A stretch of DNA of 64,000 bases. It comes from Escherichia phage BME3. Position 1 is the stretch's first letter, and each line of letters begins with the position of its first letter. Below the pieces are notes generated by a model that did not search any database, was not told where the DNA came from, and saw only the letters and a program-made list of their open reading frames with translations. Of this stretch, positions 1-30,310 are shown piece by piece. The position numbers were made by a program, and so were the translations under genes. The stretch lies in the sequence record PP239276.1. The stretch is one strand, 5' to 3'.

Positions 1-55
1 AACGCGATTTTCAGCGCCCCCCGATTTCTGCCGACCGTCCCCCTCAAATATCAAT

Positions 56-84
56 GAGAATAATTATCATTTGCATTATCATTC
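56..84. repeat. Fur-box-like AT-rich repeat (gagaataattatcatttgcattatcattc)
   Basis: Matches hexamer-repeat pattern of Fur box GATAATGATAATCATTATC at about 14/19; one of several related copies. Confidence 0.4.
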
Positions 85-250
85 AATGACTTATAAGACT
101 TTTGATTATTTTCTGAGCGAAAAAGGTGCTACTCACAACAAAACAGATAAATTCTAAGTAAATCAATGACTTGGCAAGTCTAAACATCTATATACACCTT
201 GCCAAATGAAATGATCCTGCGTGAAATAGTGCTACCCGTGGAAGATAGCT

Positions 251-271
251 GATAATGATTATCATTTGCAT
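251..271. repeat. Fur-box-like repeat (gataatgattatcatttgcat)
   Basis: 16/19 identity to Fur box consensus by eye. Confidence 0.45.
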
Positions 272-660
272 ATTTTCTATACTATAAAACGCCCTAAAAA
301 TCAAGATAATTCTACTTTATTGCGCTTTTAAGAAAGTAGGCTCAACAAATAGGGAGATACATTGCAACAAATAGGGGTAATTTTATCCAACAAATAACAA
401 CAAATAGTAAGTTATATGGGGCAATAGTATGAAAAATCATCTATTCAGATATAAATAATTTTGCGCAATAGTAGTAATATTTTCTTGACAAGAAAGATTT
501 CTTTGTGTTCACATAGCGCCCCCTGGAAGGTGGCGCATTATGATCATCGGTGTCATTATTCACGATGTTTACTATTGCATAGCTCATTATTTAGCTTATA
601 TTATAGCCAATGTTCTAAACATTAGCTAATAATAACGCACCGCAACAATGTAAGGGAATA

Positions 661-793
661 CAATATACCATGTATATTGTTGCGCTTGCAATTGTTGCAA
701 GCTACATAAGCACAAATAATAACTATCGGTGATAGTTATTATGTGGGGTGTGTAGTTGCGTTATTATTAGCCGCCTATGTGTCCGGCATAGGC
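661..793. repeat. Cluster of four inverted repeats in non-coding DNA
   Basis: caatatacc-atg-tatattg (661-679), cttgcaa-ttg-ttgcaag (685-701), aataactatc-ggt-gatagttatt (718-740), gcctatg-tgtccgg-cataggc (773-793). Confidence 0.5.
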
Positions 794-4657: not shown

Positions 4658-4720
4658 GGCGGGGAAACCATTTCCCCGCTCTATGAGATACAATATACTC
4701 CTTATCAGGTGTGCTGTCAA
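4658..4720 (-). promoter_or_regulatory. early promoter plus leader hairpin module
   Basis: TTGACA (4715-4720), 17 nt, TATATT (4692-4697), box gtatctcatagag, hairpin cggggaaaccatttccccg. Confidence 0.6.
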
Positions 4721-5044
4721 TCAATAATCTTCAATATTTTCTACATTGACAAAAGCATGTTTATTTTCTAAGTTTTCGCCGTACCATTGCCCCATGTTGA
4801 TTTCTGCGGTGCGTAACCAGGACATGCCGCGTTCTATCTTTTTGCTCGCAATGTCGATCCGGCTTTTGCATAGTGCTTTAGCTTGCAATGTAAAAACATT
4901 ATTGCCATGTAATGCTTCCAGGTCATCATGTGCAAGGCGATACTCTTTAAAGCCTGATTCTATCATTTCAATCGCATCAAGGAAACGAGCGCGATGATAG
5001 AAAAAATCAGAGTTATCCAAATAAACACCGATCACAGATTTCAT
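4721..5044 (-). CDS. hypothetical early protein (107 aa)
   Basis: ORF track 4721..5104 trimmed to ATG at 5044 (MKSVIG) with RBS aaaaggg. Confidence 0.55.
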   Translation of the reverse strand: MKSVIGVYLDNSDFFYHRARFLDAIEMIESGFKEYRLAHDDLEALHGNNVFTLQAKALCKSRIDIASKKIERGMSWLRTAEINMGQWYGENLENKHAFVNVENIEDY

Positions 5045-5144: not shown

Positions 5145-5264
5145 TTAAAACACAATGCATAACAACATGGTTATAGTAGCAATACAACATAAAGCCATGC
5201 TTGTTTTCCTTCCTTCCTCGTATGCTGGATTTATTACGCTATATTGTACGGGAATAATTTTCAT
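5145..5264 (-). CDS. possible 39-aa peptide
   Basis: Hand-translated ORF with RBS aagga; weak support. Confidence 0.25.
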   Translation of the reverse strand: MKIIPVQYSVINPAYEEGRKTSMALCCIATITMLLCIVF

Positions 5265-5273
5265 GCTGTTTCC

Positions 5274-5369
5274 TTAATGTCTTAAAACGTGGTTTACAAT
5301 AGAAACAAGTATACAGAAGAAAAAAGATCCTGACAATAAGATCCCGAAAAATAAATGTAAATAGGGCAT
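5274..5369 (-). CDS. 31-aa hydrophobic peptide MPYLHLFFGILLSGSFFFCILVSIVNHVLRH
   Basis: Strong RBS aaggag 7 nt upstream of ATG; hand-translated. Confidence 0.35.
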   Translation of the reverse strand: MPYLHLFFGILLSGSFFFCILVSIVNHVLRH

Positions 5370-5373
5370 GGTT

Positions 5374-5676
5374 TTACTCCTTAAAAAAATCATTGACAAT
5401 TAAACTGATAACGCCCAGCACCAGATCACCAGGTAGCGCCGCGCTTTCGTTGTTGCTTGTTTGCACTTCCTCACTAGTACCAGCATGATAGATCGCATGG
5501 TAAGCAATAGTATAATAACCTTTCGTTATTTCTTTAAGATTAATGATTAGCACGTTATTTGTTTCATCTTGAAACAATTTAGCGGTGATAGTATTGTTTT
5601 CTTTTACACTATCGACTTTTATTGATGGATCATTTACACCAGAAAAAAGAAAAAACGTTTTAGCTATGCCGTTCAT
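5374..5676 (-). CDS. hypothetical early protein (100 aa)
   Basis: ORF track; RBS aaaggaga; promoter upstream. Confidence 0.6.
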   Translation of the reverse strand: MNGIAKTFFLFSGVNDPSIKVDSVKENNTITAKLFQDETNNVLIINLKEITKGYYTIAYHAIYHAGTSEEVQTSNNESAALPGDLVLGVISLIVNDFFKE

Positions 5677-7295: not shown

Positions 7296-7511
7296 TTATG
7301 AAATAAATGTCAAAGTAAAATCATAATCTTTTGATAGTTTATATTGCACCTTGTTACCGTATATGTCACCTTTACGTAAAGATCCACGGATACCGATAAC
7401 ATCTTTCACATCTTTAAGATTTTTCACGCCTGTAATATCTTTATTAAAATATTCGTCATCTGAAAATAAAACTTGCTTTGCATTTTTTAACAAGGTGCGG
7501 ATATTAGCCAT
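7296..7511 (-). CDS. hypothetical early protein (71 aa)
   Basis: ORF track 7296..7559 trimmed to ATG at 7511 (MANIRTLL). Confidence 0.55.
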   Translation of the reverse strand: MANIRTLLKNAKQVLFSDDEYFNKDITGVKNLKDVKDVIGIRGSLRKGDIYGNKVQYKLSKDYDFTLTFIS

Positions 7512-7532
7512 GATGATTTCTCTTTTAGTTGT

Positions 7533-7590
7533 GAGCGGCACTATTGCCGCCCTATGCATTACATTTTACTGATTTTAGTTATCTTGTCAA
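7533..7590 (-). promoter_or_regulatory. early promoter plus leader hairpin module
   Basis: TTGACA (7585-7590); hairpin family gagcggcactattgccgccc (also at 4294 and 11175). Confidence 0.55.
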
Positions 7591-7598
7591 GATTATTT

Positions 7599-7826
7599 TT
7601 AGTTTAATCCATCCAGGCACAACAAGCGATCAACATTCAGATCGGTTAGGCTAATCGTTGGCACCTGGTAGGATTCGATGTACTCAACGCTCGACCATTG
7701 CCCAAAGTTAGCGACCGCCCAGCTATTCAAGGAGGAGTGAAGATCATCCCCTTTCTTCTCGGTGATAACTGCTACTACCTGGGAGATTCCAACCGTACCG
7801 GATACGCGAACAATAACGATAGCCAT
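7599..7826 (-). CDS. hypothetical early protein (75 aa)
   Basis: ORF track. Confidence 0.55.
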   Translation of the reverse strand: MAIVIVRVSGTVGISQVVAVITEKKGDDLHSSLNSWAVANFGQWSSVEYIESYQVPTISLTDLNVDRLLCLDGLN

Positions 7827-10879: not shown

Positions 10880-11152
10880 TTAAAGCAAAAACGCTACATC
10901 TTTCGCTTTTAGTGTAGTGTCAATCATGTTCGGGCTTTTATAATCCACAAAGCGCGCGGTTTTTTCAATAGCGAAACCGAGATAATCTTGCTTATTGAAG
11001 TTACATTCTTTTTTAAATGTTTCCCGTGCCACTGTGATCGCTGCGTCCAGGGATAAACGCCCGTCAATGTTGATGTTAGCGAAAGATCCGCCACCGCGCA
11101 TAGGTTTACCAGTGATACCCATTACGATCATTGATGCGCTATATGATGCCAT
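10880..11152 (-). CDS. hypothetical early protein (90 aa)
   Basis: ORF track. Confidence 0.6.
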   Translation of the reverse strand: MASYSASMIVMGITGKPMRGGGSFANINIDGRLSLDAAITVARETFKKECNFNKQDYLGFAIEKTARFVDYKSPNMIDTTLKAKDVAFLL

Positions 11153-11174
11153 GATTATTTCTCTCTTCTGTTAT

Positions 11175-11236
11175 GAGCGGCACTATTGCCGCCCCTCGAC
11201 AAGATGAATACTACGCTACCAGGTGAGGAACGTCAA
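11175..11236 (-). promoter_or_regulatory. outermost early promoter plus leader hairpin
   Basis: TTGACG (11231-11236), 17 nt, TAGTAT (11208-11213), hairpin gagcggcactattgccgccc. Confidence 0.55.
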
Positions 11237-11271
11237 CCATTTTTTTAATCTTTTTTTCATTTCTTTTTTGC

Positions 11272-11300
11272 TTGCTATCTATAAAGGAAACGGCTATTAT
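11272..11300 (+). promoter_or_regulatory. divergent sigma70-like promoter (TTGCTA-17-TATTAT)
   Basis: -35 at 11272-11277, -10 at 11295-11300, upstream of ATG 11348. Confidence 0.45.
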
Positions 11301-11347
11301 CTTTCTACCGCGCCAACCAGGGCGCACATCAAAGAAAGGGCGATACC

Positions 11348-11614
11348 ATGACAAATACTCCTTTACATCTCATGCACTCATTGGGCTGGCAAGGCGGCAC
11401 GGTGCACCAGGTAGCAAGCGCAACGGGCTTAAAGGTTGAAACCGTTCTCAACCTGGGCGATCATAAAGTGGAAGAGATAGAACATTTTGATCCGTTCGCT
11501 GATGGTTATCTATGGGCTTGCAGTGGCGGTGGGGAAAGCAAGATCCCACCAGGGGCGCGGGGCGACATGTATTTTTGGTTAGGTGTCCTATCCTGGCAAG
11601 AAAACAAAAAATAA
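11348..11614 (+). CDS. hypothetical protein (88 aa)
   Basis: ORF track; RBS aaagaaaggg. Confidence 0.55.
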   Translation: MTNTPLHLMHSLGWQGGTVHQVASATGLKVETVLNLGDHKVEEIEHFDPFADGYLWACSGGGESKIPPGARGDMYFWLGVLSWQENKK

Positions 11615-11616
11615 TC

Positions 11617-11645
11617 TTGACAAGCCCAGGGATCGGGCTTATACT
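11617..11645 (+). promoter_or_regulatory. strong sigma70-like promoter (TTGACA-17-TATACT) with no obvious downstream ORF
   Basis: -35 at 11617-11622, -10 at 11640-11645; spacer contains hairpin agccc-n7-gggct. Confidence 0.45.
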
Positions 11646-11875
11646 GTTTTACATACAGAAGAGGAAGCGCCACCCCCACGGCGTAAAGGCGGGGCTAACA
11701 TACCAGGGGGCACTGGTTGGAAGGTTGATCGCCGGTAGCTCGTCTAAAATAAATTTGTAAAGAAATGTAAAGATAAAAATAATCGCTTGCTTTTGTTGTT
11801 GGTTATGCTATTCTTATTGTATGGCGAGGGGACACGGGAGCGCGAGACAAACACCACCCCTGCGCGTTATTCTCT

Positions 11876-11990
11876 AAATGAGAAAAATTCTCATTTGCTA
11901 ATGATTCTCATTCTCTTAGTGAGAATGATTATCACTTACATAATTAAATGATAATGATTCTCATTTACAAATGAGAATGATTATCATCCG
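11876..11990. repeat. Array of Fur-box-like palindromes
   Basis: aatgagaa/ttctcatt, tcattctc-ttagt-gagaatga, tctcattt-aca-aaatgaga; gagaatgattatca core recurs. Confidence 0.5.
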
Positions 11991-12010
11991 CACACCCATA
12001 AAAACACGAA

Positions 12011-12225
12011 ATTGAACTTTTCATTTTTGATTTTTCTACGGAAAAAGGCAAAAAAACTTTAAATAAACTGGGGAATTTTTTAAAAATTGAAGTTTTCATT
12101 TTCAAAATCTGGATAGAAATACATACAAAAACTTTAAATAATTTTGACCAAACTTGAACTTTTCATTTTCAAAATTTGTATCCAAAAATCTGTAAAAACT
12201 TTAAATAATTTTGTCCTTTTTATAA
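12011..12225. repeat. Three imperfect tandem repeats of about 68-75 bp
   Basis: Units start near 12011, 12086, 12153; each has ttgaacttttcattttcaaaat and aaaactttaaataa. Confidence 0.6.
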
Positions 12226-12427
12226 AAATGATTTTACTGTTCTGTTATAAATAGTAGTTAAGAGATAGTATGCCTTTTAAAAACCAGATATCATAATCCA
12301 ACAAACAAATTAAATAATTTATTAACAGAGTACAAAATAATATTTACTCTGAATATATTATTCAGAGGGTGAATTTCCGTACATGAAACCCACACCCCTT
12401 TTTATAAAAATAAAAATTTTCAAAATA

Positions 12428-12979
12428 TCAGGAAATATCAGATTGTGCTTTTAGATAAACAGCAAGGTCTGTATGCCATTTTCCTAAAAGATTTTGTCCT
12501 TTCCAACAGTCCTTATTTTCCACGTCACGATCCCACATCCCCATTTTGATACCATAAATAGAATCATAAGGGCTTGCCTCTACGAACTCCTTATCTGCGT
12601 AGGTTATAAGTTTATTTTTGAGATCTTCATTTTGTGTGTATTTAAGATACAAACCACGTTTGACAATCTTCTCCCGTAAAGAAGTCCAGGTATCTTCATC
12701 ATAATCTTTAACTAATCTGCCTAGTCGCTTATAATATGCTTGTTCTTTTTCTCCTGTATATCTTAGATCTCCGGTTAAAATAGAAGATGCAATACTGTAA
12801 TCATAAAACAAACATGCTTTTCTCCACATCATATATTGTTCCACACAAGTAAATTCAACAGAACTTGTAATAGAATTATTATACTTGGGTGCTAAAGGTT
12901 CAATAAAAGATGATAGATACCAGTTGCTAAATTCATCTTTTGCTGAAAAGAAGAACACATACTTATCAGTAATCCGCAT
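12428..12979 (-). CDS. NADAR-domain (YbiA-like) protein
   Basis: FFFSAKDEFSNWY, CVEQYMMWRKA and GMWD motifs fit NADAR pattern; TAA-ATG coupling to upstream gene. Confidence 0.6.
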   Translation of the reverse strand: MRITDKYVFFFSAKDEFSNWYLSSFIEPLAPKYNNSITSSVEFTCVEQYMMWRKACLFYDYSIASSILTGDLRYTGEKEQAYYKRLGRLVKDYDEDTWTSLREKIVKRGLYLKYTQNEDLKNKLITYADKEFVEASPYDSIYGIKMGMWDRDVENKDCWKGQNLLGKWHTDLAVYLKAQSDIS

Positions 12980-13969
12980 TTACATCTCCTTACTGTATAC
13001 TAATTTGCCACCATATTGTGTAATAATTTTTTGAAGATTTTCCAAATCAGAAACACTTACTGTTTCTGTATAACCGTCTTTCAACTCTCTTTCCGTTAAA
13101 ATACCAGTTTTTAATTTTTTCTTTATAGCTCTTTCAGCAGCCTTACATTGTTTTACTGTGCTAAAATCATATAAACAAATACGCTCCATAGGAAACATAT
13201 TACGGCTATTTTGAATTTTTAATCGTCTATCACTATCTTTAGCTATACCAAACTTAAGAGCAACTATAATATTATCATCCTTAACAATATTAATATATAA
13301 CTGCTGCTGACTATGACCAGCACACATAGGACAACCTCGACCGAGGCTTAATAAATTATGAGCACTCCCTATCTGCTCACCATGCACAAGACAAAGATAT
13401 TTAAACTTACCTATAGAAGAGGGTTTGGTAATCCAATCTACCCAGACATACCCTTTCCCTTCTACTTCCTTTTTTACCCTATAGGTGATCTGGTCTTCTG
13501 TATACCGATAGTTCCCACAACGACACGGAATATACCCTCGTTTAAGGTTATCTCCTTCAGAGTAAAATTTACCATCACAAACACCTGCTTGAACATATTC
13601 ATCATGAGAGCAAACAGGACATTCAACCATCCAGATAATATTCCTACATCCTTTACCCCGTGTTCCTGTGTTAGTGAAGATAGTGCCTTCCTTAAATTCC
13701 CCTGTAGAAAAGAAATCTGCAATATGTTGATCGTCGGACATTGTTTGTGACTTCCTTATATTCTTCCTCCTACATTGTGGACAACCGCTACCACATTTAA
13801 AACTGTTAATACTTGTAGTATCCCATTTATAACCACAATGGCACAACAAATCAAGTTTTGTGTGGACCCCTTTCCATTGTCCCGTCCATCCTAAGATTTG
13901 GATTTGCTTACTCTCTGCTATTGGTATACACTCTTCTTTATATTGTTCCCATGATTTTGGTGCTGCCAT
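12980..13969 (-). CDS. Zn-ribbon-rich protein, possible GIY-YIG-superfamily nuclease-like C-terminus
   Basis: CxxC pairs (GCPQC, CPVC, GCPMC); C-terminal LYINIV...FGIAKDSDRRLKI; RBS aagaggag; function low confidence. Confidence 0.55.
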   Translation of the reverse strand: MAAPKSWEQYKEECIPIAESKQIQILGWTGQWKGVHTKLDLLCHCGYKWDTTSINSFKCGSGCPQCRRKNIRKSQTMSDDQHIADFFSTGEFKEGTIFTNTGTRGKGCRNIIWMVECPVCSHDEYVQAGVCDGKFYSEGDNLKRGYIPCRCGNYRYTEDQITYRVKKEVEGKGYVWVDWITKPSSIGKFKYLCLVHGEQIGSAHNLLSLGRGCPMCAGHSQQQLYINIVKDDNIIVALKFGIAKDSDRRLKIQNSRNMFPMERICLYDFSTVKQCKAAERAIKKKLKTGILTERELKDGYTETVSVSDLENLQKIITQYGGKLVYSKEM

Positions 13970-14043: not shown

Positions 14044-15171
14044 TTAAAACACACTTGCCAAAGTTGCACCATTGGTGATAGTTGGTTCCAGAACAATACG
14101 GAAAGAATCTTCTGGATCATCACTAAACACAACGATTTTACCGCCTGTGATAAGATCTGCTTTCATTTTTGTCGCATTCAATGGAATTCGAGCATCGCCT
14201 TCATCATCAAAAACCACGTAAGAGCTATTAGCAAGGGCTTCTTTAGAGTCTGCATCACTTGGAGATGACAAGTACACGTCTAGTGTGCACGAACCACCTA
14301 AAAAGATTGCAGGTGTAAAGTTATGCCAACTAGATACCCAGCTAACTTTCTGAAGTTTTCCATTAATAACAACGCTGCTGATATCCCATTTATTACCACC
14401 ACCTAAAGAAACGCCCATCATAGAGATGCATTCTTTAAAGGATAAATCAGGGTAGAAATTAAGTTCTTCTACTATACCTTGGATCACATCAAAGGACAAC
14501 TCTAAACTTACATCCCAAAGTCTTTGGAAATTATCAAAGTGTGCTTTGTTATCCAGGTTTTTATCTAAATAGTCAATCATAGTTTCTAGTGAGATTTTAT
14601 CATAATTAAAATTATAAAACACACGACTAGGACGATTTAAAAAGAATTCAGAGATAAAACCACTGTTTTTAGTCAGAATAAACAGTTTATTACCACTGCC
14701 AGTACCATCTAACAAAGTGAGAAGTGCTTCTTGATCTTGTTTCTTCTCATACACTTTATCAAACTCGTCAAAAATAATCACTGCTTTGTCGGTGATCTTG
14801 CTAATAAGTTCAATGAAATTAGCATCGCTGTAGGCTTGAGTAACCATAATAGTTGGAATACCTTCTTCTACAAGGTCACGACTAATGAGTTTGGCTAACA
14901 TAGTTTTACCACTGCCCTTAGTTCCTGTCAGGAGCAAACCTGTATTTTTACCTTGTGCACTCCGGCGATGGAATGTACGAATAACGTGATTTGCTCGTTT
15001 TTCTGTTTCACCATACAGAACATCCGGTACACCTGTTAGATTACCACGGCTTAAAAAATAATTGCCAAGGGGATCACGACTAACAGTATAGAATCCAGGT
15101 GGAAGATAGTTAGATTCCACGCCCATATCTTTATTTACACTTACAATATCACCATAAATCGTGTATTTCAT
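14044..15171 (-). CDS. classic-clade AAA ATPase (paralog A)
   Basis: Walker A GTKGSGKT, Walker B IIFDEFDK, LLTLLDG, sensor-1-like FILTKN. Confidence 0.7.
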   Translation of the reverse strand: MKYTIYGDIVSVNKDMGVESNYLPPGFYTVSRDPLGNYFLSRGNLTGVPDVLYGETEKRANHVIRTFHRRSAQGKNTGLLLTGTKGSGKTMLAKLISRDLVEEGIPTIMVTQAYSDANFIELISKITDKAVIIFDEFDKVYEKKQDQEALLTLLDGTGSGNKLFILTKNSGFISEFFLNRPSRVFYNFNYDKISLETMIDYLDKNLDNKAHFDNFQRLWDVSLELSFDVIQGIVEELNFYPDLSFKECISMMGVSLGGGNKWDISSVVINGKLQKVSWVSSWHNFTPAIFLGGSCTLDVYLSSPSDADSKEALANSSYVVFDDEGDARIPLNATKMKADLITGGKIVVFSDDPEDSFRIVLEPTITNGATLASVF

Positions 15172-29149: not shown

Positions 29150-30310
29150 ATGTTTACAGTATTCGGCAATCAAATCTTCCTGCGTCAGAAGTCTGGTACA
29201 GATATTGAAGAAATTCCAGCAGGAACTTTTGGTGTAGGTGTTACTCAAAGTGGTGAGTTCTTCCTATATCCTAAAAACGATATGGAAGTCCCTTCAGTAA
29301 CATACGGTGATACTGATGATAAATCAGAACGTATTATCAAGACGTTCCTTAGCCGCAAAGGTAAAAACACAGGTGTTCTCCTTGAGGGTACGAAAGGTAG
29401 CGGTAAAACTTTGCAAGCTAAAATGCTGTCTTCTGCTCTTCGTGAAATGGGTATTCCTACTATTTCTATCGGTAGTGCTTTTAATGGTGAAGGCTTTATC
29501 AATTTTATGTCTAAAATCACACAACCTGTGATGATTATGATCGATGAATTTGATAAACTGTATGCTGAAAAAGATGCACAAGATGGTTTGCTTACCCTGC
29601 TGGATGGTGTTGGTGGCTACGACAAGCTGTTTGTATTGACTAAAAATGATGGTTATGTATCAGAATTTTTGCGTAATCGTCCTAGCCGTATTTTCTACAG
29701 CTTTAGCTATAAGAAACTACCTAAAGCTACTATGGATGACTATCTGGCTAAAAATCTGGAGAACAAAGCCTTTTTACCAGATTTTGAAACGCTTTATAAT
29801 CTCTCCGTGGATTTGAACTTTGATATTGTTCAGTCATTAGTAGAAGAACTTAACCGTTACCCTAATGACAAATTCTCTGATGCACTTGCATTGATGGGTA
29901 TCAGTATTACTGAACACCGCTATGCTGCAAAAGAGGTTAAACTTCTGAAAGTTAACGGTGTAGATCGTACAGGAGATGTTTCGTCAGATACCGATATTGA
30001 CGGTATGACAGCACAAGGTTTGTTTAGCGGTAATCGTTATGTTGTAGCTGTAGACCATAAACTAGGTGAAGAGCATCTTCCTGAAATGGAAGGGATTGTT
30101 ACCGTAGAAGATAAAGATGAAGAAGGTGACTACTACTGGGGTGTAGACCGTATCTTGCTAACGTATGATGAAAAACACATTCGTACAATGGGTGGTGACG
30201 GCTATCACTTTATGTTCACCGATGATAAAGGTAACAACATTGAAGTTGTTATTAAAAACAAAGAACGTAAAAACTACACAGAGTATGTGTTTGGTGGTCG
30301 TTCTTACTAA
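29150..30310 (+). CDS. classic-clade AAA ATPase (paralog B)
   Basis: GTKGSGKT, MIDEFDK, LLTLLDG, FVLTKN; collinear with 14044..15171. Confidence 0.7.
   Translation: MFTVFGNQIFLRQKSGTDIEEIPAGTFGVGVTQSGEFFLYPKNDMEVPSVTYGDTDDKSERIIKTFLSRKGKNTGVLLEGTKGSGKTLQAKMLSSALREMGIPTISIGSAFNGEGFINFMSKITQPVMIMIDEFDKLYAEKDAQDGLLTLLDGVGGYDKLFVLTKNDGYVSEFLRNRPSRIFYSFSYKKLPKATMDDYLAKNLENKAFLPDFETLYNLSVDLNFDIVQSLVEELNRYPNDKFSDALALMGISITEHRYAAKEVKLLKVNGVDRTGDVSSDTDIDGMTAQGLFSGNRYVVAVDHKLGEEHLPEMEGIVTVEDKDEEGDYYWGVDRILLTYDEKHIRTMGGDGYHFMFTDDKGNNIEVVIKNKERKNYTEYVFGGRSY

Follow-up and report, generated by a model that had tools for sequence, protein, structure and literature searches.

A 64,000-nt stretch of Escherichia phage BME3 (sequence record PP239276.1; this whole stretch is referred to here as the window) carries an array of three tandem repeat units at 12009-12217, in a non-coding gap beside a NADAR gene. 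Comparison with related phages indicates that these repeats are an ancient cis element under purifying selection, with a fixed number and spacing of units; we regard the element as selectively maintained because its copy number is constant and its units are conserved one-for-one. The repeats form the last part of a ~0.8-kb (~820 bp) non-coding locus. We tentatively favor the reading that they are docking sites for a lineage-specific factor, coupled to transcription, and that their output would be the initiation of replication or an early switch.

Repeat units and their conservation

The initial annotation of this DNA had described three tandem units of about 70 bp. Their existence was confirmed by Tandem Repeats Finder, which reported 12083-12213 (period 67, 2.0 copies, 82% matches, score 185) as the top-scoring array in the window, and by a repeat search, which placed in-register direct copies at 12009, 12084, and 12151, with spacings of 75 and 67 bp. 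The number of units thus stood, but their uniformity did not: the actual lengths are 75, 67, and 67 bp, and unit 1 is clearly more diverged, with units 2 and 3 being 65% and 72% identical, respectively, to unit 1 taken as the reference. Each unit contains a box A, AAATTGAAsTTTTCATTTT, and then a box B, AAAAACTTTAAATAA, that starts ~41-45 nt further on, depending on the base counted from. The three units are as follows.

12009-12083 (75 bp), plus strand: repeat unit 1, with box A at 12009-12027 and box B at 12050-12067, followed by a conserved CTGGGGAATTTTTT linker
12084-12150 (67 bp), plus strand: repeat unit 2, with box A at 12084-12108 and box B at 12125-12144
12151-12217 (67 bp), plus strand: repeat unit 3, with box A at 12151-12175 and box B at 12192-12211

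Two motifs had been quoted for every unit. Units 2 and 3 alone carry an exact copy of the first, the 22-mer ttgaa(c/g)ttttcattttcaaaat (12087 and 12154; chance expectation 0.01), unit 1 reading ttgaacttttcatttttgatttt at this position; the second, aaaactttaaataa, is indeed present in all three units (12053, 12128, and 12195), ending in ...ataaa in unit 1 and in ...ataat in units 2 and 3. The three occurrences of CTTTAAATAA in the 64 kb all lie inside the array. Box B was likewise found only at the array, though the window includes the replication genes and large opposite-strand open reading frames (ORFs), and therefore it is not a general promoter motif. When the repeat region was compared with the whole window by BLAST, no further copy was found elsewhere; the two match places that each BLAST record gave were rejected as a second genomic copy, being the mere offset self-match of tandem units. 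The repeats are non-coding, as had been proposed, and alignments read by eye revealed no conserved ORF for a small peptide in the units.

The array also stands out in its base composition. No other 300-bp stretch of the window is as AT-rich as 12051-12350 (20.3% G+C vs. a mean of 37.8%, standard deviation 3.8), the array is among the least stable stretches of the window, and a wedge model, the result of which is rough, ranked it with the most curved segments. Both ATG and CAT are rarer than expected (12 and 17 observed vs. 65 and 60 expected). Since this is probably a by-product of A- and T-tracts, ATG avoidance was discarded as an uninformative strand test.

The region matches E. coli myoviruses of the genus Justusliebigvirus (phi92-like, subfamily Stephanstirmvirinae), with identities of up to 99.1%. 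For the genus, we considered the 55 records of the phage collection that covered at least 80% of a 271-nt query. All 55 match the query at 95.9-99.3% identity over 269-272 bp, and therefore the copy number is fixed at three in the genus. A hypervariable, slippage-prone repeat of the variable-number type was rejected on this constancy, and a ~255-bp length difference within the genus was traced to a place outside the repeats, upstream of an 88-amino-acid (aa) ORF, where phi92 has an extra small gene. Among seven genus sequences, 2.9% of the sites in the units are variable, compared with 5.6% in the NADAR gene, 7.1% in the 88-aa ORF, and 15.4% in the spacer after the repeats. The initial annotation had allowed that the units might prove variable or not conserved in related genomes; they are conserved.

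Beyond the genus, three units are found at the same place in Citrobacter phage Tr1, in Klebsiella phages KP2025, phi1_175008, FKP3, and KP13-26, in Phapecoctavirus tuntematon, and in one IMG/VR contig. We aligned the units of seven Stephanstirmvirinae lineages, this phage included (alignment A2). The units correspond one-for-one: unit 1 is orthologous to unit 1 of the six other lineages and is closer to unit 1 of other phages than to units 2 and 3 of its own genome, and therefore the triplication is old and not the result of recent slippage. Between lineages, the units share a mean pairwise identity of 67% with 4% gaps, compared with 38% identity and 25% gaps in the non-coding spacer that follows them, and TTTAAATAAT in unit 3 is invariant across all seven. 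The conservation lies in the primary sequence, in the form of short boxes.

Three tandem units following Fur-like boxes were also found in nine members, from several genera, of a second subfamily, the Vequintavirinae (CR3, BIS47, SSE121, Av-05, Kashira, FENT2, pEa_SNUABM_55, CB7, and POP15), whose units agree in period but differ in sequence: an A5-6T6 tract is followed by AAATACGATyTyGA, then by GAAAA, and then by CGATCGAGAAC. The palindromic cores of the boxes are TTTAAA in one subfamily and CGATCG in the other; a few short stretches seem, by eye, to be homologous across the two unit types (GGGGAATTTTTT vs. GGAAAAATTTTTT, and GTTTTC..ATTTTsAAAA). Six Stephanstirmvirinae lineages have spacings of 75-76 and 66-67 bp; the values are 67 and 74-75 bp for BIS47, SSE121, and Av-05 and 63 and 78 bp for CR3. 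In all ten phages measured, the two spacings add up to ~142 bp.

The array had initially been described as abutting a putatively acquired cassette. The gene on its right does vary by lineage, being NADAR in Justusliebigvirus and Phapecoctavirus, DUF6939 in the Klebsiella and Citrobacter relatives, and other genes in the Vequintavirinae, but the repeats themselves are part of the conserved module to their left. NADAR is not their partner, since in relatives the repeats stand beside unrelated genes, and the comparisons indicate that the array travels with the left-hand module and not with NADAR.

The non-coding control locus

The locus runs in the order P1, RNA1, CpxR-type box, P2, RNA2, five Fur-like boxes, repeats, terminator, and AAATATCA repeats. 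Besides the three units, the following features were assigned.

11348-11614, plus strand: 88-aa ORF that heads the rightward unit (phrog_19316, function unknown)
11617-11645, plus strand: promoter P1, TTGACA-17-TATACT, near-consensus (11/12 matches)
11648-11745, plus strand: RNA1, a conserved GC-rich segment with 82-87% identity across many Vequintavirinae
11754-11773, plus strand: TTTGTAAAGAAATGTAAAGA, a perfect GTAAA-N5-GTAAA direct repeat of the CpxR type, ~14 bp upstream of the P2 -35
11787-11814, plus strand: candidate promoter P2, TTGCTT-16-TATTCT (alignment A1, see below)
~11821-11870, plus strand: RNA2, a conserved GC-rich segment downstream of P2
11879-11986, no strand assigned: five Fur-box-like palindromes TGAKAATNATTMTCA at 11879, 11896, 11920, 11949, and 11972, directly upstream of the repeats
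11958-11987, plus strand: putative promoter P3, TTCTCA-18-TATCAT (9/12 matches), pointing into the repeats
12220-12362, no strand assigned: AT-rich, unconstrained spacer after the repeats (identity and gaps as above)
12367-12403, plus strand: candidate intrinsic terminator, GGGUG..CACCC followed by CUUUUUAU, which closes the rightward non-coding unit
12423-12440, plus strand: AAATATCAGG AAATATCA direct repeat (AAATATCAGGAAATATCA), period 10, at the right edge of the module and overlapping the NADAR stop codon

The stretch from P1 to the Fur-like boxes can be aligned across the Stephanstirmvirinae and the Vequintavirinae CR3, BIS47, and SSE121 (alignment A1), and the same layout was found in Av-05, Kashira, FENT2, pEa_SNUABM_55, CB7, and POP15; the module predates the subfamily. 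The 88-aa ORF at its head has an N-terminus that looks helix-turn-helix-like by eye (GGTVHQVASATGLKVETVL); in KP2025, BIS47, and SSE121, small ORFs that are unrelated to it stand in its place. It was considered as the protein that binds the repeats and rejected: KP2025, without the ORF, keeps the same units, and Av-05 has the ORF with the other unit type. Kashira, too, apparently has it with the other unit type, in the form of a plus-strand ORF of the same size.

RNA1 contains an invariant ATCGCCGGTA; its consensus fold consists of a long-range stem with a few compensatory pairs, and it has no match in Rfam. Together with RNA2, it is a candidate for an undescribed phage non-coding RNA, each of these GC-rich segments lying downstream of a promoter (P1 and P2, respectively). 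The box between RNA1 and P2 conforms to the CpxR consensus GTAAA-N5-GTAAA (PMC9603713). It is unique in the window, invariant except at the N position in 11 phages of the two subfamilies, and degraded in Serratia and Erwinia phages; the distance from the box to the P2 -35 is 3 bp in most relatives vs. ~14 bp here. In P2 itself, the same number of phages (11) show no variation in the -35 TTG or in part of the -10.

Fur-like boxes were found in all relatives examined. The window holds nine such palindromes vs. 0.16 expected; the four outside the locus lie at 55-69, 250-264, 1161-1175, and 1219-1233, in the terminal repeat and the sub-terminal region, and the one at 250 is a perfect 7-1-7 Fur motif, TGATAATGATTATCA. 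Such clusters suggest iron-dependent control or, possibly, titration of Fur by the phage DNA. Fur-like boxes also occur in the predicted terminal repeat of the jumbo phage Muenster. Both hexamers of P3 lie inside Fur-like boxes (those at 11949 and 11972), an arrangement that would be classic for a promoter repressed by Fur. Three Stephanstirmvirinae lineages have a poor P3 -10 (TCTCAT). In the Vequintavirinae, a credible sigma-70 promoter, clearer than P3, separates the Fur-like box from unit 1, and no ORF follows it; SSE121, for example, has TTGACA-17-GAAAAT after a TGTGA, and BIS47, Av-05, FENT2, and pEa55 have equivalents.

To the right of the units, the spacer holds the minus-strand terminator hairpin of the NADAR operon (~12348-12366). 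A plus-strand hairpin followed by a U-rich run is present near the flanking gene in 7/7 lineages, with folds that are weak and z-scores near 0 in three of them; no consensus fold of the terminator was obtained from the poor alignment, and single folds were used. The candidate terminator segment has 1.5% variable sites within the genus. The AAATATCAGG AAATATCA repeat, which was also reported by Tandem Repeats Finder, is unique in the 64 kb (0.01 expected) and occupies the equivalent place in relatives of both subfamilies irrespective of the gene that follows (matches at 18 loci). A copy was also seen at 431-447 of FKP3, near the genome end. Because the Vequintavirinae promoters, P3, and the plus-strand hairpin with its U-run all point rightward, transcription through the array in this direction is likely.

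Proposed docking sites, possible RNA product, and other readings of the array

In the mechanism that we favor, a conserved control locus would be transcribed rightward, with the three units as its distal part. Each unit would offer two short boxes at fixed distances as iteron-like docking sites on the DNA for a lineage-specific, probably phage-encoded factor, and the three sites, set across a fixed ~142 bp, would together form a single nucleoprotein complex. Transcription from the upstream promoters, which are apparently wired to host signals, would be coupled to the assembly or firing of this complex; as its most likely output, the complex would start phage DNA replication or throw an early regulatory switch, as at the transcription-activated origins of phages. 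We infer that the array acts as DNA rather than RNA, that it is bound by a protein, and what the resulting complex would do. The strict spacing fits a DNA-protein architecture, and the shift of the motifs between subfamilies while the layout stays is as expected for co-evolution with a specific binding factor. The proposal of an iteron-like or protein-binding array, already made in the initial annotation, therefore survives in its generic form as the leading explanation, since the repeats are maintained as a cis element with a constant copy number and units conserved one-for-one.

Two kinds of known origin offer a comparison. The primary origin of T7 consists of two tandem promoters and an AT-rich stretch, and the T7-type replisome starts, in T7, at promoters followed by such a stretch; T4 oriF and oriG consist of a promoter and a downstream unwinding element. 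Here, likewise, tandem promoters on the plus strand (P1 with 11/12 matches, and the candidates P2 and P3) are aimed into a very AT-rich element (20% G+C in the array), and the replisome resembles that of T7 in having a primase-helicase of the gp4 type and a polymerase of the PolA type (protein analysis; PMC3606486). Unlike those origins, this locus has host sigma-70 promoters with host-factor boxes and a fixed three-unit repeat with boxes of its own, and its AT-richness is not conserved in the sister subfamily. The second comparison is with iteron arrays, such as those of lambda ori, P1 oriR, and the F and pSC101 families. Like these, the present array consists of direct repeats that lie in non-coding DNA and all face the same way; their number and spacing are conserved, whereas their sequence varies by lineage. 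Classic iterons are 17-22 bp long, close together, in helical phase, and beside an initiator gene and DnaA and IHF sites, whereas the period here is 67-75 bp, each unit has two boxes ~41-45 bp apart, and neither an initiator gene nor DnaA or IHF sites accompany them.

Several observations weigh against the docking array. No DnaA, IHF, or Fis consensus was found in 11150-12430, nor were paired DnaA boxes in this interval, whether searched as TTWTNCACA or as TTATCCACA with one mismatch. Among the neighboring genes there is no initiator gene or initiator-clade ATPase, the AAA ATPase (PF00004) not being of the DnaA/IstB clade, and the replisome genes lie ~33 kb from the array. The spacings are not multiples of a helical turn, 75 bp being equal to 7.1 turns and 67 bp to 6.4. 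Neither the AT-richness nor the predicted curvature is conserved in the Vequintavirinae arrays. The 88-aa ORF, the only ORF of the unit, does not co-vary with the repeat type. In the Klebsiella phage FBKp34 (Stephanstirmvirinae), the module is kept as far as the Fur-like boxes and is then followed by different repeats. Lastly, an upstream promoter and a downstream terminator-like element without an ORF between them fit an RNA product equally well. Where the three units would stand, FBKp34 has two copies of a ~40-nt element, ~190 bp apart (FBKp34 2440-2760), that flank a strong plus-strand promoter, TTGAAT-17-TATACT.

An RNA product is indeed possible and is almost as likely as the docking array. 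The array would then be the body of a phage non-coding RNA of ~410 nt and ~80% A+U, running from P3 (or by readthrough from P2 or P1) to ~12403, the three single-stranded modules of which would bind protein or pair with target RNAs under Fur (iron) and CpxR (envelope-stress) control. Such control is typical of small regulatory RNAs; P3 lies within two Fur-like boxes, the Vequintavirinae have their sigma-70 promoter directly before the three units with no ORF behind, and the plus-strand hairpin and U-run precede the flanking gene in seven lineages, in a segment that is almost invariant in the genus. In addition, all units have one orientation in every lineage, and those of the Vequintavirinae hold inverted repeats that differ in sequence between units, with a single-unit fold that is better on the plus strand in 8/12 cases, about equal in 2/12, and worse in 2/12, although the hairpins are modest. 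On the other side, the 421-nt RNA folds no better than its shuffles (z = -0.88 for the plus strand and -0.03 for the minus strand), the consensus folds of the two subfamilies are weak (-2.65 and -7.85 kcal/mol, with 1 and 4 compensatory pairs), Rfam gave no relevant match at E<=1, and no complementary target was found in the window. An unstructured RNA should moreover tolerate indels, yet the spacing is rigid, and the P3 -10, as noted, is poor in three lineages. No tRNA or tmRNA was found in the window. It is unlikely that the array is simply the AT-rich unwinding element of an origin of replication and that the repeats are incidental: strong promoters lie upstream, and the array is the most AT-rich and among the least stable parts of the 64 kb, with strong curvature in the rough wedge model, but the arrays of CR3, BIS47, SSE121, and Av-05 have 32-48% G+C (47.6% in CR3), near the composition of their loci, and no curvature is predicted in the Vequintavirinae arrays. 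Because AT-richness is absent there, generic unwinding cannot be the shared function; what is conserved is the specific boxes and not the base composition. There is little to recommend the view that each unit is a promoter, either as three tandem early promoters in the style of T7 A1-A3 or as a phage-specific late or middle promoter. TTGAAC/TTGAAG resembles a -35 and AATAAT a -10, unit 2 has one weak match (TAGAAA-17-AATAAT), and box B is reminiscent of the T4 late motif TATAAATA (T4 consensus in PMC3606486). No -35/-10 pair at 16-18 bp is common to the three units or to the relatives on either strand, however, box B occurs nowhere else in the 64 kb, and the Vequintavirinae units end in CGATCGAGAAC, which is not promoter-like. 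Read by eye, boxes A and B fit none of the sigma-E, sigma-32, FNR, OmpR, ArgR, UP-element, or CpxR sites, and these candidates were rejected. Finally, a packaging (pac/cos) or terminal-processing site, which the initial annotation had also offered, is highly improbable. Repeated sites are typical of terminase recognition regions and a few database records start near the region, but the physical ends are formed by the 342/343-bp terminal repeat at window 1-342, 12 kb from the array, which refutes this reading.

The remaining reading that we weighed, for which the support is circumstantial, assigns the array to a checkpoint in DNA entry, comparable to the T5 injection stop region. The 12 kb nearest the end, an arm of small early genes, would enter first, and a region dense in repeats and palindromes would hold the DNA until early proteins were made; we consider this improbable. 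It is a similarly long shot that phi92-like and rV5-like myoviruses enter in two steps, with the Fur-box array and the three units as the cis-acting stop, and just as doubtful that, in such a scheme, bound host iron and envelope-stress regulators together with the inward promoters would time the entry of the remaining genome. In a preprint on 25 T5-like phages, Davison placed a candidate injection stop signal at 7.9% of the genome, the extent of the first-step transfer in T5, in conserved non-coding DNA that carries direct repeats of 66 bp and many repeats of 22 bp, the order of which is conserved while the nearby genes are not; Fur is not mentioned. The array of BME3 lies at ~8% of the genome from the terminal repeat. 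The likeness to T5 Repeat Region 3 (66-bp DRE, 22-bp DRD) extends to a non-coding island among end-proximal small early genes, ~8% in, with direct repeats and palindromes in an order that is conserved though the neighboring genes are not, and to elements common to both, the Fur-box-like palindromes and the GTAAA-N5-GTAAA 20-mer. The Fur-like array matches the terminal-repeat non-coding region of T5-like phages; in T5-like Gostya9, the same Fur-like boxes form the tandem 22-bp repeats (7350-7610), beside paired DnaA boxes. The exact 20-mer TTTGTAAAGAANTGTAAAGA was found in T5-like contigs (42 IMG/VR stretches; Gostya9 4711-4730), often at two loci per contig, as expected for a sequence inside terminal repeats. 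Unlike the T5 region, however, the BME3 locus has no paired DnaA boxes, its ~70-bp units share no sequence with the 66-bp DRE, and its terminal repeat is 342 bp rather than 10 kb; a Pfam and PHROGs scan of the 15 larger ORFs (86-184 aa) of the 12-kb arm, the smaller ORFs being unscanned, gave no A1 or A2 homologue, and two-step entry has never been reported for these phages. Some of the probability belongs to functions outside those considered here.

Genome end, neighboring genes, and wider setting

Several records place the window in the genome. Window 1-342 corresponds to the 342/343-bp direct terminal repeat of phi92-like phages, left and right copies of which are annotated in the phi92 record; window 1-700 maps to the minus strand of the final bases of that record (147942-148611 of 148612), and the records of W22, PHB05, VEcB, PD114, and PD06 start or stop exactly at window 1-342. 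In Klebsiella phage FKP3, a 317-bp terminal repeat was called with PhageTerm (PMC11663894), and this repeat maps onto the same genome end. Because the terminal-repeat annotation, the record ends, and the FKP3 mapping all agree, the window corresponds, in reverse-complement orientation, to a phi92-like genome's right end. The repeats thus lie 12.0-12.2 kb (~8% of the genome) inward from the physical end. Between ~16.6 kb and the terminal non-coding region, every gene is encoded on the minus strand, and the repeats occupy a 1.27-kb gap between the minus-strand genes at 10880-11152 and 12428-12979, the latter being NADAR (Pfam E = 6e-36). The neighbors of the array comprise NADAR, a homing-endonuclease-like protein, a classical AAA ATPase (PF00004), and small unknown proteins.

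Database records annotate at most a "repeat_region" here (inny, alia, and tuntematon), and the phi92 record has no feature in the gap. In the genome literature searched on these phages, which left the phi92 paper (PMC3457257) outside, the region is not discussed, and no transcriptome or origin mapping for these phages was found within the same scope. We describe the array as a conserved cis-acting repeat array in an early non-coding control region of the phage. Some 820 bp keep the order of their elements across two large subfamilies of therapeutic-candidate coliphages while the surrounding genes are swapped, which marks a core cis function, and relatives with the locus infect Klebsiella, Salmonella, Cronobacter, Serratia, Erwinia, and Pectobacterium. 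Should the array prove to be an origin or a site of regulatory docking, it would offer a handle for engineering or controlling these phages; if it is transcribed into a functional RNA, it would represent a phage regulatory RNA under host Fur and CpxR control. The Fur-like boxes and the CpxR-type 20-mer held in common with T5 suggest that virulent phages with no relationship to each other have tied the first part of their DNA to common host sensors.

Other features of the window were noted along the way. Bases 343 to ~1400 are non-coding and dense in short repeats. Within this region, 839-1238, which adjoins the terminal repeat, is the second most AT-rich part of the window (21% G+C), and short repeats of the ATAGTTAT / ATAACTAT type occur in its neighborhood at 713-745, 826-842, and 969-1016; they resemble nine tandem aataactatagaaat repeats of T5-like Gostya9 (~5210-5330). 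Beside NADAR, 12980-13969 encodes a 329-aa protein with CapR and T5orf172 domains (homing-endonuclease-like, phrog_681), the length of which varies within the genus and in place of which more distant relatives have other genes; this gene is a mobile insert. Two paralogous AAA ATPases, both phrog_2376, are encoded on opposite strands at 14044-15171 and 29150-30310 and flank the strand switch at ~16.6 kb. Two database records call for care at their ends. The ends of the phiWec187 record share just 148 bp, which map to window 5242-5389 and look like an assembly overlap rather than a true terminal repeat, and the FKP3 record has a third copy of the 317-bp terminal repeat at 501-817, which is probably an artifact of assembly re-orientation.

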